DNA from: a virus
Virus record (IMG/VR): IMGVR_UViG_3300010218_000011
Length of the DNA stretch: 64,000 nt
Reading direction: 5' to 3' (one strand)
Each line of letters starts with the position of its first letter. Position 1 is the stretch's first letter. The notes under the pieces are model-generated. The model saw nothing but the letters and a program-made list of their open reading frames with translations, did no database searches and had not been told where the DNA came from. Positions 2,335 through 33,312 of this stretch are shown here, piece by piece. Made by a program: the position numbers and the translations under genes.

Positions 2335-3507
2335 TCAGTTGATGGTGATTGTGCCAGCGACGAGTGCCCCGTTGGCGCCTGCGGGAAGATCAGCCGTCCC
2401 GCCATTGAGCGTCATCGTGTTCGCGACCGTGGCGACGCCCGGAACGCCCCAGATGATCTGGAATATTTGCGTCCATTCGAGCGTACCGCCGAGCGGAATT
2501 GAGGCGATGAAATTGTCGAGCGCGGTTTGTACTGCTGCCTCGACATTCGCCAGCGTGTAGCCCGACGCTGCGGTGATCGTTGCGGTGATATTCGCCGTGA
2601 CTTGCGTTGCCGCGAACACATCGAACGTGATCGAAAGACCCCGAATCGCATCGATCGCCGAATAGACGGCGGTCTTGAGCGTGTTCGTATAGGGCGAGAT
2701 GACGACGTAGAAATAGCCTGGCTGGCTGGCTCCGGCGAGCGTTTGGTTTTCGACGATCTCGTACTGAATGCCCTGCTGCACACCTGCGATCGCCGATTCT
2801 ACGGCCGCCTTGATCGCCGCGCGCAAGCCAGAGACGTAAGTCTGAAAGCGCGCCTGTACCGCCGAATCACTTTCCTGATTCACGCCGTTCGTGAACGCAC
2901 TTGCGTTTGTGACGGTATCGACGTATTGAATCGCGGTGGAAATGGTCGTGATTGTGCCCGCAGCGACATTACTCTGAATGCCGGCGTTCTGCGCCTGTAC
3001 CGTTACCTGCGCACTCGCGACGCCTGCGGGAATCACGTAGGCATTCGTCGCGGCATTCCAATACGTTTGCGTCGAATCGGGGATGACCTGAAACTGTTGC
3101 GTACCGTCAGCCGTGAGCAGCATCACGCCGCCCGAATACGATCCGCCTACACCACTCGAATTCGCGGTGTACGTCCCAGCCAGAATCGTTGCTTGCGCAG
3201 TTGCGGTAAAGCGTGAGAATGTGACTTGCCCAGTTGACGCGACAGCCGCCTCACGAGGCGGGCATCCGAAATCGGCAATGAACGTGTCGATGTCATTGCC
3301 CGTCGAGGTAGACAGGCGCGTCACGCTCAACAGTTGCATCACGAGCGACTGGAGCCACATCGCGACCGCCGCGACCGCCTCCACACGGGCCAACTCGAGC
3401 GAACCCACGACGAAGCGCAAAACGCCGCCCAGCGCAGTCACCGCCGACTGAATCGCCGCGACCTGTTGCTCGACGATGCGCGTGAAGCTTTGGGTGTTAA
3501 GAGCCAT
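2335..3507 (-). CDS. Baseplate J-like protein (Mu gp47 / P2 gpJ-like)
   Basis: 390 aa; position between the gp25/W-like and gp48-like genes. Confidence 0.7.
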   Translation of the reverse strand: MALNTQSFTRIVEQQVAAIQSAVTALGGVLRFVVGSLELARVEAVAAVAMWLQSLVMQLLSVTRLSTSTGNDIDTFIADFGCPPREAAVASTGQVTFSRFTATAQATILAGTYTANSSGVGGSYSGGVMLLTADGTQQFQVIPDSTQTYWNAATNAYVIPAGVASAQVTVQAQNAGIQSNVAAGTITTISTAIQYVDTVTNASAFTNGVNQESDSAVQARFQTYVSGLRAAIKAAVESAIAGVQQGIQYEIVENQTLAGASQPGYFYVVISPYTNTLKTAVYSAIDAIRGLSITFDVFAATQVTANITATITAASGYTLANVEAAVQTALDNFIASIPLGGTLEWTQIFQIIWGVPGVATVANTMTLNGGTADLPAGANGALVAGTITIN

Positions 3508-3883
3508 ACGCGGGAACGTTGAAGGTGAGGGTCTGCGGGACGCGCGTCGGCGCGTAGACGTAGTTGATCGTGACGCTCAATAGACCGCTCGTGTCTGCCT
3601 GATAGGTGTAGGTCGCGGCTGGCTGCTTCTGGACGTCGGGTTCGTCTTTCAGGACGCTTTGAATCAGCGACTTGATCTCGGTGAATTGCTCATTCGACAG
3701 CGCGCGGCCGACGAATCTGCCTAGGCCTGCGCCGTACGTCGGATGCCAGATGTAGGTGCCGGGGGGCGTGAGTAGGGCGCGGACGATACGCTGATTCAGT
3801 TCCGTTACGCCCATTGCGGTCAAATCGTCACCCGAGGCCGAGAACTCGATGTCCTGGCCCCACCAGTGGTATGCGTCTGTCAT
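3497..3883 (-). CDS. Baseplate wedge protein, GPW/gp25-like (Mu gp46-like)
   Basis: 128 aa; ...RIVRALLTPPGTYIWHPTYGAGL... resembles the GPW_gp25 core; synteny. Confidence 0.7.
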   Translation of the reverse strand: MTDAYHWWGQDIEFSASGDDLTAMGVTELNQRIVRALLTPPGTYIWHPTYGAGLGRFVGRALSNEQFTEIKSLIQSVLKDEPDVQKQPAATYTYQADTSGLLSVTINYVYAPTRVPQTLTFNVPAYGS

Positions 3884-25714: not shown

Positions 25715-25900
25715 CTAATGCCCGCAACATTGTTGATCCCGCTCGCGCGTCGAGCCGCAAGATAGGCACGTCACGAGCTCGTACTTATCGCGCTCGCAGG
25801 CCATGAATGCGTGGCCGTGCTCGTCGACATGTAGTTCCGATCCGGCAATGGATGGCTTGGTCGGCATACGGGCCTGGCATCCGTCGCATTGGTTCAGCAT
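25715..25900 (-). CDS. Small Cys-rich (zinc-ribbon-like) protein
   Basis: 61 aa with CDGC...CLSC. Confidence 0.45.
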   Translation of the reverse strand: MLNQCDGCQARMPTKPSIAGSELHVDEHGHAFMACERDKYELVTCLSCGSTRERDQQCCGH

Positions 25901-26211
25901 GATTGTTCCTTCGGTGAATTCTTAGCCGCAAAGAACGCCCAACCGATAAACAAGGTGATCGGAAGCGCTACGAACCCGAAGTACAGCAGCGCGCCCGCTA
26001 CGACCATCGAACTAAGAAAGTCGTAGAAGCGGCATACGACCGGCGCCGGGATTTGATCCTCCCCGAACATCACGGAACCGATGTGCGCCCCCGCGCAAAA
26101 CCACAGCCAGCATTCGAGAAATGTCTTGGCGCCGTGAATACCCTTTACCTGCCATAGATACAGTAGCGCGGCTAGGAAAATATCGAACAGCACCATTCGC
26201 GTTAGTTTCAT
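25894..26211 (-). CDS. Multi-pass small membrane protein
   Basis: 105 aa with 3-4 hydrophobic helices. Confidence 0.5.
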   Translation of the reverse strand: MKLTRMVLFDIFLAALLYLWQVKGIHGAKTFLECWLWFCAGAHIGSVMFGEDQIPAPVVCRFYDFLSSMVVAGALLYFGFVALPITLFIGWAFFAAKNSPKEQSC

Positions 26212-26921
26212 GTTTCCCGCTCCTCTAGATGGTTGATTGGGGGTTGGTTATTCGCTCGAAAGCAGGGCGAATGCTGTTGCAGCCACGATTGGAACCTGCG
26301 CGTCTCCAGTGGCCTCAAGTCGGTCCATCCTGCCGGGAAGCCCATCAGCCACTCGTGATTCGTCGGGGTTGGCTTCCCAAACACGCGGACGTACTCTCGA
26401 CAGGTGGGCCACTTTTGCATCGACGCCGCGGCGTAGTTCGCGGTCGCTGTCGGCGTATGCAAGAAGCCAGTAGCGCTCCCGAATGTGGTCAGCACCCACG
26501 TCTGCCGCTGAAAGAGCGATGCATCTGACCGCGTAACCCATCGCCTCAAGGTCGTCTGCGGCCCGGTCGATCGCGCGTCGCTGGGTGTTCTCGGCGCGTA
26601 CGTACCGGGGAGCGACATCTGCCACGATCCGTCGCATTTCCGGCCAGAGATCGTCTGCAACGTTTTTTCCTCGAGCCGCACTGGAATAGGCTTGGCAGGG
26701 AAAGCCTCCAGATACGCAATCAACAATGCCGCGCCATGGGAATCCGTCGAAGGTGCGAACATCGTTCCAAATGGGGAACGGTGGAAGGTGCCCTTCATTT
26801 TGTCGCTGCATGAGTCGTCGGATGCGATAGGGATTGCTTTCGACAGCACAGACCGTTCGATGTCCGAGAAGTCTTCCGGCGAGTATTCCGCCTCCAACGC
26901 CAGCGAAAAGTTCCAACTCAT
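26208..26921 (-). CDS. Frame-B ORF overlapping the C5-MTase frame (MSWNFSLALEAEYS...EWLMGFPAGWTDL family-like)
   Basis: ATG directly after the HNH stop, GGAGG 8 nt upstream, ATGA overlap with the next gene; motifs LHTPTATA and EWLMGFPAGWTDLRPLE recalled from phage methylase-associated proteins. Confidence 0.45.
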   Translation of the reverse strand: MSWNFSLALEAEYSPEDFSDIERSVLSKAIPIASDDSCSDKMKGTFHRSPFGTMFAPSTDSHGAALLIAYLEAFPAKPIPVRLEEKTLQTISGRKCDGSWQMSLPGTYAPRTPSDARSTGPQTTLRRWVTRSDASLFQRQTWVLTTFGSATGFLHTPTATANYAAASMQKWPTCREYVRVFGKPTPTNHEWLMGFPAGWTDLRPLETRRFQSWLQQHSPCFRANNQPPINHLEERET

Positions 26922-26925
26922 TCAA
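26248..26925 (-). CDS. DNA (cytosine-5) methyltransferase, short phage type (frame A)
   Basis: Motifs ELFAGVGGG (I), GGFPCQ (IV), AENT (VI-like), HIRERYWLLAY (VIII-like), GDAQVP (X-like). No nearby in-frame ATG, so TTG at 26925 is assumed; the frame is open to 27111. Confidence 0.7.
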   Translation of the reverse strand: MNELELFAGVGGGILAGRLLGHRTVCAVESNPYRIRRLMQRQNEGHLPPFPIWNDVRTFDGFPWRGIVDCVSGGFPCQAYSSAARGKNVADDLWPEMRRIVADVAPRYVRAENTQRRAIDRAADDLEAMGYAVRCIALSAADVGADHIRERYWLLAYADSDRELRRGVDAKVAHLSRVRPRVWEANPDESRVADGLPGRMDRLEATGDAQVPIVAATAFALLSSE

Positions 26926-27788
26926 GCCGCCTCCCTCTTCATCCGCCGAACCTCGGCGCTCTCGATTCGGCCGAGTGCGTCCCGGCTCACGATGCCTTGG
27001 TCGCCACCAGGTTTTGCGGGCGCAAATACGGCGCGATCGTGATCCCATCCAAGCCTGAAGCGCATACGAATTGCTCCATCGGTGACGGTGCAACCTGGCT
27101 CGCGCGACCACTCCATAGCCGTTTTCGTCACGCCATTGATCGTCAGCGCGACTGCGTTCGATCGGGAGTACTTTGGCTTGGGCGGCGGAGGCGGCCGCTT
27201 CCCGTTATGGGTCATCTTCGGGGTGAATAGGGCATCGTAGTCAGACATGCCACGATTTTTCCTCTGCGCGATAACATGACCCGCAATCGAGACGCGAGGA
27301 TCGCGCGCCCATTCATTGGCCGTCTTCGTCTCTCCGTCGAAGGTGATGCCGCGATGCCCTTTGTGAAGATATAGCGGCAAGTGCATGCTTCGGTGCGTAT
27401 TGCAGGTACTGCAAAGCGGTCTCAAATTCTTCGGGTCGTTGTTCGACGGATCTTCGTCGATGTGATCGATATGGGCGATCGTCCACGTCAAAGGCTTGCC
27501 GCACAGTTCGCATGGCGGCACCACATCGCCGATCCGGTCATAGACAATCTTGCGGTGCTCCCATACCTGACCAGTACTATCCGCCAATGGATGATCCGGC
27601 ATGTACAGTTGCCAGTAGCCCCTAGAATCCTGACGCCTCATCGTCCTCTGCGGCTTCGGCAAAAGATGGTAGGTCCCATTCCTCATGAACCGGAAGTAGT
27701 GTTTCTGGCAGACTTGCTGGGCGCTGTACATCGCGAGCCGATCGCAACCCTCGATCTTGCAGTTTTTTGATTCGACGAGCTTTCTCAC
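26922..27788 (-). CDS. HNH homing-endonuclease-like protein
   Basis: 288 aa; CKIEGC..CQKHY Zn motif, HIDHIDEDPSNNDPKNLRPLCSTCN (HNH), two repeated ..GxTKTAxEWxR.. DNA-binding modules. Confidence 0.75.
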   Translation of the reverse strand: MRKLVESKNCKIEGCDRLAMYSAQQVCQKHYFRFMRNGTYHLLPKPQRTMRRQDSRGYWQLYMPDHPLADSTGQVWEHRKIVYDRIGDVVPPCELCGKPLTWTIAHIDHIDEDPSNNDPKNLRPLCSTCNTHRSMHLPLYLHKGHRGITFDGETKTANEWARDPRVSIAGHVIAQRKNRGMSDYDALFTPKMTHNGKRPPPPPKPKYSRSNAVALTINGVTKTAMEWSREPGCTVTDGAIRMRFRLGWDHDRAVFAPAKPGGDQGIVSRDALGRIESAEVRRMKREAA

Positions 27789-30672: not shown

Positions 30673-30995
30673 GCTGATTCCTTCAAAGCCTCGATAACGG
30701 TTGCAATAGCGGCGCCGCTTTTCACCATGCCGCCAGTGAATCGAAAGACGCGCCAGCCCGCGAGCGATGCGAGATTTAGCTTTTCGCAGTCGTTCTCGTA
30801 CCCCGATCCGGTTGTGTGTCGACCTCGCTGCATCCACGTTCCACCATCAATTTCGACCGCTACCTTGTTGGTCGAATCGGGCCAAGCGAAGTCGAAACGG
30901 AACCGACGCGGCGGTGCGAAACGAAACTCGCGCACCGGCTCCGGTAATTTCGCAGCTCGCACGTGTAGGGCGAAGAGGGATTCAAGGGGGCTCAT
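30669..30995 (-). CDS. Vsr/DUF559-like endonuclease-fold protein
   Basis: 108 aa; ..FDFAWPDSTNKVAVEIDGG... pattern (recalled); next to a methyltransferase. Confidence 0.5.
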   Translation of the reverse strand: MSPLESLFALHVRAAKLPEPVREFRFAPPRRFRFDFAWPDSTNKVAVEIDGGTWMQRGRHTTGSGYENDCEKLNLASLAGWRVFRFTGGMVKSGAAIATVIEALKESA

Positions 30996-31879
30996 GCAGC
31001 GGCCCCGAATAGATCGGCTTGGTTGTCGGCCACGGCGCTCTTGCAGTTCTCGACAGCCAGCTTGAAATACGATGGCTTAAGTTCGGAGCCGATGCCGCGC
31101 CGGCCCATCTTTAATGCGACATACGCCTCGCTGCCGATGCCAAGAAATGGCGTGTAGACCAAATCGTTCGGGTTCGTCCACAGGTCGATAGCCCGCTCGA
31201 TCACCTCAAGCTGCAGGGGTGATATGTGGCGCTCGTCGTCACTCTCCCGCGCGCTCATGTATTGCAGCGTCTTGGACTGGTTGATATCCATCCAGACGGG
31301 CGAGGCGTAGCGCTGCCACAGATCGACCGGCAGGCTTTCATGCGTATGCGTGACTGGCTCCGGGTTGTCGCCAGGCTTGCGCATGATGACCAGATAGTCG
31401 GCGATGCCCTGGCGGCTCATGGCGCTATCCTTGCGCAGTTGCTTGTAGAGCAGCCCGAGCGCCTTCGTGCGCTGCATCGCGACTACCGGGTCTTTCCAGA
31501 TACACACTTCCGAGTGGTAGATAAAGCCGGCGTCCTGGTGCGCGCGGATGATCTCGCCGCGGAAGTCTTTCAGGCCGATATAGCCGTCGCGCGTCTTGGA
31601 CGTCGGAAGATTCATGCAGTGAATCGCAATGAGCCGGCCGGGCTTCATGATGCGGATATGCTCCGCAATCAGGAACCGGTAATGCGTCCAGAAGTCGGCG
31701 CTTGATGCGTTGTTGCCCATGTCGCGCTCGGAGTTGCTGAACACGAACAGGGATTCGAAAGGCGGGCTGTACACGGAAAAGTCGATCGATGCATCGGGCA
31801 GTGAGCGCGCGAGCTCGACGCAATCAGCGTTATAAAGACTGAACCGCTCGGCGATTTCCTGATTAATGACGTTGGTCAT
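30992..31879 (-). CDS. DNA N6-adenine/N4-cytosine methyltransferase (beta class)
   Basis: SPPF catalytic motif early, FLGIGSE AdoMet motif late; start at MTNVINQ in an ATGA overlap with the SNF2 stop. Confidence 0.8.
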   Translation of the reverse strand: MTNVINQEIAERFSLYNADCVELARSLPDASIDFSVYSPPFESLFVFSNSERDMGNNASSADFWTHYRFLIAEHIRIMKPGRLIAIHCMNLPTSKTRDGYIGLKDFRGEIIRAHQDAGFIYHSEVCIWKDPVVAMQRTKALGLLYKQLRKDSAMSRQGIADYLVIMRKPGDNPEPVTHTHESLPVDLWQRYASPVWMDINQSKTLQYMSARESDDERHISPLQLEVIERAIDLWTNPNDLVYTPFLGIGSEAYVALKMGRRGIGSELKPSYFKLAVENCKSAVADNQADLFGAAA

Positions 31880-33312
31880 ACGCGCTCCACATTCTGGAAA
31901 ATCCATTGCGGGATCGCGAGAGGAACGGCCGGCCGGTAGGCTTCGGTGCCGCTCGTCGCGCCCTGAATCTGTTTTTGGGTCAGGTCGCGCATGTACGTGA
32001 CCATTTCGCCGGCCATCGTGTCGCTCTGAGTCTGCTTGCGGGCGATGTTGTCTTTCACGGCACCTTCGGTGTCGGCGGTGATGATATGAGCCGTCACGGT
32101 GCGTTTCTGTCCGAACCGATAGCATCGGCGGACAGCCTGATAGAACTGTTCGTACGAGTCGTTCATGCCGGCGAAAATCTGGACGTTGCAGAACTGCCAG
32201 TTCATGCCGGCGCCGCAAATAGAAGCTTTCGAAACCAGCGCGCGCTTCTCGCCATGCGTGAAGGCCATGATGTTTCGCGTCTTTTCCTCGATCGACATGG
32301 AGCCGGTCACTTCGACCGCGCCGTCGATCATTTTCGCGAGGCGCTCGGATTCTTCGTTCAGGTGGCACCACACAATGACCGGGCCCTGGTGTTCATTCGC
32401 CAGGCGCGCGGCCAGTTCAAGGCGTGAATCGATGCTGGCCTTCTTGGCTTGCCGGCGCTCAGTCAGGCTTTGAGCCACAACCGGAAACAGATGCCCTTCG
32501 AGCAATTCGCCGCTCTCGACAACGTGCTCAACCATGGTAAGCGGCGGCAGGACGTAGCGCGAACCATCGAATCCGAGGTCGGCCGGACTGCGGATGCAGA
32601 TCGCCCACGTCGCCATCCATTCCCAAAACTTGACCTTACCGTGACCCTTCAGGCGCCACTTGCCGGTATCACCACCGTCATGCGTAAAGAACGTTGACAG
32701 CATTTCGACCGAGGTCATGACGCCGAGAAATTCCGCCTGGGTGCCGAGTTCCATCCAGTCGTTAGGACTCGGCGTTGCCGTGCACGACAGCTTGTACGGC
32801 GTGAACCGGAAAGCGTCCGTGATGAACTGGCGCGTCTTGCCGTTGTGCGACTTGATGATTCCCGACTCGTCCAGCACCACGCCGACGAACGATTCCAGGT
32901 CGAAGTGTTCGAGCATTTCGTAATTCGTGATCGTGATGCCGAGCTCGACTTCGGACTGATCGCGGCAATACCTGATCGTGATGCCGAATTTGGCGGCTTC
33001 CTCGACCGTCTGCTGGGCCACGCACAGCGGCGCGGCGATGATCACGTTGCCGCCCGTGCGGTCGCAAACCTTCTGCGCCCAGGTAGCTTCCTGAATGGTC
33101 TTGCCGAGTCCGGTATCTTCGAACAGCGCCGCGCGGCCGCGCTTGAGCGCCCACTTCACGCAAGCGGCCTGGAAGTCGAACAGTGGCCCGACCGGGATAT
33201 CACAATCGAACCCGGTAGGCACATCGGCGAACTGCTTCGACTTGATGAACGTCTCATAGTCATTAGGACTACTAAGCACCCGTTTAACATCCATCCCCGC
33301 ATCCATCCCCAT
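31876..33312 (-). CDS. SNF2/DEAD-like helicase
   Basis: DTGLGKT (motif I), VLDESG (motif II), C-terminal helicase half; start at MGMDAGMD. Confidence 0.8.
   Translation of the reverse strand: MGMDAGMDVKRVLSSPNDYETFIKSKQFADVPTGFDCDIPVGPLFDFQAACVKWALKRGRAALFEDTGLGKTIQEATWAQKVCDRTGGNVIIAAPLCVAQQTVEEAAKFGITIRYCRDQSEVELGITITNYEMLEHFDLESFVGVVLDESGIIKSHNGKTRQFITDAFRFTPYKLSCTATPSPNDWMELGTQAEFLGVMTSVEMLSTFFTHDGGDTGKWRLKGHGKVKFWEWMATWAICIRSPADLGFDGSRYVLPPLTMVEHVVESGELLEGHLFPVVAQSLTERRQAKKASIDSRLELAARLANEHQGPVIVWCHLNEESERLAKMIDGAVEVTGSMSIEEKTRNIMAFTHGEKRALVSKASICGAGMNWQFCNVQIFAGMNDSYEQFYQAVRRCYRFGQKRTVTAHIITADTEGAVKDNIARKQTQSDTMAGEMVTYMRDLTQKQIQGATSGTEAYRPAVPLAIPQWIFQNVERV

Follow-up and report, generated by a model that had tools for sequence, protein, structure and literature searches.

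Does a gene that can be read without interruption in two frames of the same strand encode one protein or two, and if there are two, do they belong together? This question is raised by a C5-cytosine methyltransferase (MTase) locus in a stretch of 64,000 nt from IMG/VR virus record IMGVR_UViG_3300010218_000011, which was analysed as a whole and is called the window below. An earlier note on this DNA had described two minus-strand open reading frames (ORFs) that share about 670 nt in different frames and had named genuine dual coding, a frameshift-split enzyme and a conserved shadow frame as the options. According to the ORF listing, frame A (26248..26925, minus strand, 225 amino acids (aa) from a TTG) and frame B (26208..26921, minus strand, 237 aa from an ATG, beginning with MSWNFS and shifted by +1 relative to A) have 26248..26921 in common and thus indeed overlap over 674 nt. 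From the analysis described here we consider it likely that the locus specifies a two-subunit C5-cytosine MTase, made from two co-extensive frames with twin starts and one Shine-Dalgarno (SD) site, with A as catalytic subunit and B as small-domain module. Instead of being unrelated proteins, the products of the two frames most likely make up one enzyme.

The arrangement of the start signals can be read directly from the sequence. A single SD-like GGGAGG (26930..26935, minus strand) is followed by cggc, the TTG of A (26925..26923) and the ATG of B (26921..26919), so that GGAGG (26934..26930) stands 4 nt before the start of A and 8 nt before the start of B and would serve both. The upstream HNH endonuclease gene ends at the same place, as its stop codon TGA (26924..26922) overlaps the TTG of A (TTGA) and abuts the ATG of B, and three reading frames thereby converge within 7 nt. 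At its other end the stop of B overlaps the start of the next ORF in an ATGA (26208..26211, minus strand). In these points the earlier note, which had placed the ATG of B right after the HNH stop with GGAGG 8 nt upstream and had seen the ATGA overlap, was accurate. The longer version of A that it had allowed, starting from a GTG at 27111, has to be given up: the TTG at 26925 does lie inside a larger listed ORF (26248..27111), but the additional part only extends the reading into the 3'-terminal part of the HNH gene, which uses another frame, and related genes start at the codons for NEL.

In order to see whether both frames stay open in relatives we collected 80 IMG/VR loci and 4 phage loci using frame-A peptides only, 82 of which could be analysed (GC content 39–64%, A identities from 87% down to about 40%). 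In all 82 relatives B runs without a stop over at least 84% of A (median 98%), whereas frame +2 of the same genes contains 7–28 stops. Shuffling of synonymous codons predicts 4.9 stops per gene in the +1 frame of the 82 genes, with zero stops in 0.4%, and 4.0 stops for the window gene, with none in only 0.5%; as the loci are related these per-locus probabilities are not simply to be multiplied. This null model is conservative because codon usage is already shaped by B, and the double openness in the window is far beyond chance. Codon usage is skewed in all 82 genes (Leu as CTT/CTC in 62%, Glu as GAA in 67%), even in G+C-rich hosts, which is presumably the price of an open and coding +1 frame.

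The start of B is conserved as well, being ATG in 80 and GTG in 2 of the 82 loci with a TGA or TAA immediately before it in 79. This ATG is maintained via the codon choice of A, which uses AAT (79/79), GAG (81/82) and YTG (81/82) at this position compared to 44%, 33% and 26%, respectively, for the same codons elsewhere in the same genes. An SD-like 4-mer precedes the twin starts in 68 of the 82 loci, and A itself starts with ATG, GTG or TTG. A tblastn search with B against 50,697 phage records matched 26 of them, and in 25 the B match lies over the A match with a +1 offset, which is 4 nt where both matches start at residue 1; the exception, MT837127.1, is discussed below. No stop interrupts either frame in Ralstonia phage Gerry, Klebsiella phage BUCT711, a Vibrio phage and an Acinetobacter phage (A 304 aa, B 298 aa), and the layout is also present in Salmonella and Pseudomonas phages. 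The ends of the two frames vary: in L025 (1501-2512) B continues for 184 nt beyond the stop of A (335 aa) with a Cys-rich tail CEKCGVPY...GKC, and in L022 (1501-2235) it is A that carries a Cys-rich tail, CECDDKYLYYDSKLGIYRCRNCGWCS, with B stopping 110 nt before the stop of A.

One could argue that B is a non-functional shadow ORF, open and seemingly conserved only through the amino-acid constraints of A together with G+C-rich codon usage. The window is indeed G+C-rich and many long alternative-frame ORFs are present in its ORF listing. Against this stands the openness of B at 39–50% GC, as in L022, the Vibrio locus L003 and the Acinetobacter locus L004, and the shadow explanation also has to account for the pattern of selection along the gene. 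Amino-acid identity of B with frame +2 as control is not suited for analysing this pattern, as conservation at the third positions of A increases the identity in both alternative frames and the comparison therefore measures synonymous-site conservation; it was replaced by codon-phase diversity and by OLGenie-style sliding-window counts of substitutions that are synonymous or non-synonymous in each frame (NN/NS/SN). In 22 short-form loci the most variable phase is A position 3 in A codons 1–135 and 211–225 and A position 1, which is B position 3, in A codons 136–210. Aligning 26 long-form loci in frame B reproduces the same switch from A to B and back to A.

The substitution counts agree with this. 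In A codons 2–121 omega is 0.10–0.30 for A and 0.54–0.94 for B, with A-synonymous sites near saturation, and this near freedom of the N-terminal two thirds of B is what a shadow ORF would show. In A codons 158–205, however, omega is 0.84–1.2 for A and 0.18–0.22 for B, with B-synonymous sites saturated, meaning that B is constrained while A is neutral (the neutral centre being A codons 158–193). Both frames are constrained in codons 122–157, where A encodes motif VIII and B TWVLTTFG..LHTPT, and in codons 194–217, where A encodes motif X with the residues before it and B EWLMGFPAGWT..PLE..F.SW. Purifying selection on frame B is thus independent of frame A, and the regions in which B is conserved are exactly those in which the synonymous sites of A are under constraint. 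The idea of a doubly coding overlap needs to be narrowed accordingly, since both frames are under selection but tight constraint in both together is limited to about 60 codons and alternates over the rest. The passenger segments are nevertheless free of stops: the nearly unconstrained leader of B (residues 1 to about 120) has 0 stops compared to 2.86 expected per gene, and the linker of A has 0 compared to 1.74 expected (3.16 if only the 24 linkers of at least 80 codons are taken).

The order A, B, A is also exactly the pattern expected if a single chain were made by programmed frameshifting from A to B near codon 136 and possibly back near codon 205, with the full ORFs being incidental, and such a chain would restore the canonical order of motifs I–VIII, target-recognition domain, IX and X. 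Yet no slippery heptamer or homopolymer is conserved near either switch (codons 136–165 or 200–212) in the 82 genes. The only conserved heptamer is found at codon 49, is due to an FP dipeptide and leads into a stop-rich frame. Moreover, frameshifting does not predict that B codons 1–135 and the A linker are free of stops in 82 of 82 genes, nor does it predict the conserved ATG of B with its upstream stop, and we know of no precedent for two efficient frameshifts in one gene. We therefore regard the frameshift-split enzyme as very unlikely and continue with two separate products.

What the first of them might be follows from the homology of frame A, for which the earlier note had listed C5-MTase motifs. 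PF00145 matches with E 1.5e-18, as residues 1–162 only, corresponding to profile positions 1–166 of 324, and phrog_363 matches over the full length (9e-48). Motif I (ELFAGVGGG) and motif IV (GGFPCQAYS, with the catalytic Cys) lie within the PF00145 match and are invariant in 85 homologues, while motifs VI (AEN-T) and VIII (HIRERYW) align with M.HaeIII and M.HhaI up to about 166–172. The PDB methylases M.HaeIII, M.HhaI and 3g7u align to A residues 1–165 only. An AlphaFold2 (AF2) model built from the 85 homologues has a predicted local distance difference test (pLDDT) score of 85–95 at residues 1–157, except for the catalytic loop (residues 77–89), and Foldseek matches it to the large domains of M.HaeIII and M.HhaI (E about 1e-10; 1dct E 6e-11) with ~170 aligned columns and a template modelling (TM) score of ~0.4 normalised to the target. 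Frame A (26248..26925) can thus be divided into the predicted folded catalytic core with motifs I, IV, VI and VIII (codons 1–157, 26455..26925, minus strand), in which A is the constrained frame, a linker (codons 160–207, 26305..26448, minus strand), which is predicted to be disordered with pLDDT <50 and whose DNA encodes the folded and constrained part of B, and the motif X-like GDAQVPIVAATAFALL helix (codons 208–225, 26251..26304, minus strand, pLDDT 83–86).

Between motifs VIII and X of A neither PF00145 nor the model shows a target-recognition domain or motif IX, and the ~48 residues separating VIII from X combine pLDDT <50 with an omega of ~1. As the PF00145, PDB and Foldseek matches as well as the confident part of the model stop at the large domain, A is a C5-cytosine MTase large domain without the target-recognition small domain. 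With ~48 disordered residues in its place A has no evident means of sequence recognition. For motif X the picture is mixed: a helix is predicted at A 212–224 and G207 and Q210 are invariant in the 85 homologues, in line with the motif X-like element proposed before, but the profile matches end before motif X and the motif (codon 208, 26302-26304) reads GD in the clade of the window and GN in 79 of the 82 related loci. GD is found in a Burkholderia/Paraburkholderia clade, namely in 17 of the 85 close homologues and 3 of the 82 loci. The closest homologues of A come from Paraburkholderia and Burkholderia (85–87% identity), and in total more than 6581 A-type proteins were found at E≤1e-10.

Frame B has no match in Pfam or NCBIfam, neither in its short nor in its long form, and PHROGs places it in phrog_1008 ('DNA methyltransferase') and phrog_26627 (unknown function). 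The earlier note had assigned B to a family of hypothetical proteins associated with phage methylases. This was correct and the family is large, with 362 close relatives predicted by gene callers and 7513 cluster representatives at E≤1e-3 in an exhaustive profile search. Its conserved part is a module at B residues 139–218 (26268..26507, minus strand) with the consensus TWVLTTFG..LHTPT..ANY..SMQKW..VFG.P.P.N.EWLMGFPAGWT..PLE..F.SW. In the predicted structure of B the pLDDT is <50 at residues 1–55 and 98–158 and 80–89 at residues 160–200, and the confidence profiles of B and A are opposite over the same DNA. Long forms of B carry 2–4 [WF]PTPxAxD repeats in an insertion, and A reads the same DNA as low-complexity sequence. 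The B-type proteins P0366 (364 aa), P0469 (400 aa) and P0365 (279 aa) have an extension of 55–170 residues before the MSW start, which may be a read-through or a fusion with the upstream gene.

The exception from the tblastn search shows the module in a different context. MT837127.1 (L086, a gut-phage contig, gene GC 37%) has a single ORF of 332 aa that consists of an A part and the B module: residues 8–226 match window A 1–222 (43% identity, E 9e-49) and residues 252–330 match window B 139–218 in the same frame (44% identity, E 6e-21, BLASTP). A search for this fused type gave 1244 proteins at E≤1e-5, of which the best 120 clusters (P0241-P0360) have 326–382 aa, nearly all of them 327–355, and cover 93–100% of the query. 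Such genes occur in Bacteroidota, Fibrobacter and gut phages and are chromosomal in Fibrobacter intestinalis and Muribaculaceae. With tblastn the B modules of six dual-coding loci match the main frame of three fused genes with 43–59% identity (E 1e-18 to 1e-25). On its N-terminal side the fused module is bounded at B ~125–139, which coincides with the switch of selection at A codon ~136, and no remnants of a B module were found in the +1 frame of the linker of the fused genes. Fusion in one chain speaks for physical cooperation between A and the B module. As a side note, the fused methylase gene on the Fibrobacter intestinalis chromosome (L087, 2502-4005) overlaps by 4 nt with the gene after it, which encodes 646 aa with a faint AAA_5 match and, in contrast to the phage loci, may provide a partner for restriction or defence.

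The fused genes also serve as a control for the shadow explanation. At 37–40% GC they have 12–21 stops in the +1 frame, spread across the A part, showing that A-type sequence is not intrinsically free of +1 stops, and in these proteins the module is an ordinary in-frame domain. Together with the low-GC loci this leaves a mere shadow ORF highly improbable. Genuine dual coding is supported, as A passes PF00145, B is open in all relatives, synonymous sites of A are constrained where B is conserved and B has homologues other than alternative-frame translations, namely the C-terminal domain of the ~330-aa methylases.

The role of the module is most likely that of the small domain, comprising target recognition and motif IX. 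Within the module EWLMGFPAGWT (B residues 190–200, 26322..26354, minus strand; read as (R)VADGLPGRMDR in A) resembles motif IX, and by eye (K)L(N)P..VEWLMG[WF]P.GWT of B can be compared with RKLHPRECARVMGYPDSY of M.HhaI and RLTPRECARLMGF of Dcm. Using hhalign and a profile of 31 module sequences, the sole match in E. coli Dcm is motif IX (402–432, P 0.19) and the sole match in M.HhaI, whose sequence was entered by hand, is again motif IX (274–289, P 0.087). The length variation between subfamilies, which is concentrated in the module and its insertion, fits a target-recognition region.

Several points weigh against the two-subunit enzyme or against this role of the module. The two hhalign matches share their register but neither is individually significant, and there is only a weak case for equating the module with a target-recognition domain and motif IX. 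The B model reaches a mean pLDDT of only 60, and Foldseek found no match for it in the PDB, the model being poor overall. A profile of full-length B gave 0 matches among PDB sequences at E≤10 and a module-only profile gave chance matches only (E ~1, e.g. ABL kinase), while PF00145 and PDB searches leave the module uncovered even in the fused protein or when only the C-terminal 107 residues are used. The long leader of B has no demonstrated role, the motif X of the window clade has GD instead of GN, and the loci are phylogenetically related and not independent trials. Finally, Mycobacterium phage KBG gp84 (L085, 1308-2021; 38% identical) has stops in the B frame at codons 1 and 13; frame A was matched by 456 Mycobacterium phage records. 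The B frame of KBG gp84 is open from codon 14 to 216, including FWPTPTASN...EWLMGFPDGWTEIEPLEMQ, and is thus nested and not co-extensive, and as it is closed over the first 13 codons initiation would have to be different and internal there.

Some of these points would also suit a module that is translated and truly linked to the methylase but acts as a regulator, tethers the methylase to some other factor of the phage or host, or is a DNA-binding accessory that modulates an A that is already competent. Neither PF00145 nor the PDB methylase sequences and structures pick up the module, and the fused proteins carry it after motif X and not between VIII and X; both observations would be in agreement with such a function. 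It is hard to reconcile with the ~48 disordered residues that A has in place of a small domain, as the specific DNA contacts of C5-MTases all come from this domain (PMC3404938), and it explains neither why motif IX is the module's only hhalign match in Dcm and M.HhaI, in the same register, nor why length variation between subfamilies is concentrated in the module as in target-recognition domains. Such a function thus appears improbable, although less so than frameshifting, and we prefer the module as the missing small domain.

The following model for the two-subunit enzyme can be proposed from the sequence. Ribosomes would be recruited by the one SD site and would start either at the start codon of A or at the ATG of B 4 nt downstream. 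Translation of A would give the large catalytic domain with motifs I–VIII, then cross the sequence-neutral, disordered linker and end with the motif X helix that would complete the catalytic domain. Translation of B would first give a leader of ~120–130 residues, the sequence of which would be dictated by A, and then the module of 80–170 residues, for which B is the constrained frame. The module would carry the motif IX-like E-W-L-M-G-[FW]-P-x-G-W-T, with repeated [WF]PTPxAxD added in long variants, and bound to A it would most likely stand in for the missing small domain, providing target recognition and motif IX.

A related principle is already documented for M.EcoHK31I from E. coli (recognising YGGCCR), in which β is encoded entirely inside a different frame of α and both chains are needed; α carries motifs I–VIII, X and the predicted target-recognition domain and β carries motif IX (PMC2836561, PMC3404938). 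The phage loci resemble this arrangement in having a large chain with motifs I–VIII and a motif X-like helix together with a second, conserved ORF that uses another frame of that gene. According to its description, however, β is nested in α with internal methionine codons as possible starts, whereas the phage ORFs are co-extensive with starts 4 nt apart, and phage B has a passenger leader of ~120 residues unlike β. Furthermore, the target-recognition domain is predicted in α, while phage A has no room for one, and M.EcoHK31I is a restriction-modification enzyme, whereas the phage or prophage methylase has no recognisable adjoining restriction enzyme. The 1995 paper on M.EcoHK31I reportedly gives 176 aa for β and 309 aa for α. 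The phage or prophage-borne family is, in addition, very large.

In the case of M.AquI two polypeptides must associate as well, and motif IX is found on the smaller one along with a portion of the variable region (PMC3404938), but this is a linear split with motifs I–VIII in α and IX–X in β and without a long out-of-frame overlap. In C5-MTases in general the small domain, consisting of the variable region and motif IX, makes all specific DNA contacts (PMC3404938). A has its large-domain fold and its motifs I, IV, VI and VIII in common with M.HhaI, M.HaeIII and Dcm, but in these enzymes a single chain also contains, between VIII and X, the target-recognition domain and motif IX. The fused ~330-aa relatives likewise have the A-type core, linker, motif X and a B module with 43–59% identity, but there the module follows in frame after motif X and neither a second frame nor the B leader exists. 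Same-strand out-of-frame genes embedded in others and conserved in a phage lineage are also known from phiX174 (B within A, E within D) and lambda (Rz1 within Rz). These classical overprints are functionally separate proteins with a short embedded gene, whereas the overlap of A and B spans the whole gene (about 670–950 nt), the products seem to be complementary parts of an enzyme and strong constraint alternates between the frames.

The layout is kept in thousands of phage genomes, and with somewhat less confidence than for the window itself we lean towards the view that thousands of phage and prophage 'orphan' C5-MTase clusters (from Burkholderia, Vibrio and Acinetobacter hosts, and in nested form from mycobacteriophages) are obligately heterodimeric, with co-extensive frames, twin starts 4 nt apart on one ribosome binding site and alternating coding and passenger segments. 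In the literature searched, which includes PMC8788219 and covers few subscription journals, no earlier account of a phage C5-MTase gene coding in two frames was found. Annotations usually record one of the frames. In Ralstonia phage Gerry (MT740739.1, 38799-39482; L001, 3001-3684) only frame B is annotated, as 'hypothetical protein', and there is no methylase call; in Klebsiella phage BUCT711 (L002) the annotation is a 5'-truncated frame A (3162..3677).

If our model is true, most annotations of these common phage methylases record one of two required products and the specificity subunit is absent from most of them. Cloning of the annotated ORF with codon optimisation would then destroy the second subunit, and the loss of B could explain inactive or non-specific recombinant enzymes as well as wrong assignments of methylated motifs. 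The locus would also be a clean natural case in which strong constraint alternates and is not doubled, with a de-overlapped fused relative available for comparison, and a test case for how the choice between starts 4 nt apart sets subunit ratios. If the view on the 'orphan' clusters holds as well, few known same-strand dual-coding arrangements of prokaryotic viruses would match this one in length and breadth of conservation.

The surroundings of the locus are a lambdoid 'nin'-like early region of a prophage. Upstream of A and B are genes for NinB, a deoxynucleoside monophosphate (dNMP) kinase, NinG/Rap and the HNH endonuclease (26922..27788, minus strand, 288 aa; PF01844 E 1.1e-6, phrog_4160 7e-41). 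The next ORF after B (25894..26211, 105 aa) has no family match in Pfam/NCBIfam or PHROGs, and beyond it the small terminase and the portal are encoded. No recognisable restriction enzyme adjoins the A/B locus. A second DNA methyltransferase-like gene is located in the same operon (30992..32371, minus strand, 459 aa), and its product matches phrog_67 (E 1.7e-35) and also, with a helicase-like C-terminus, phrog_16.

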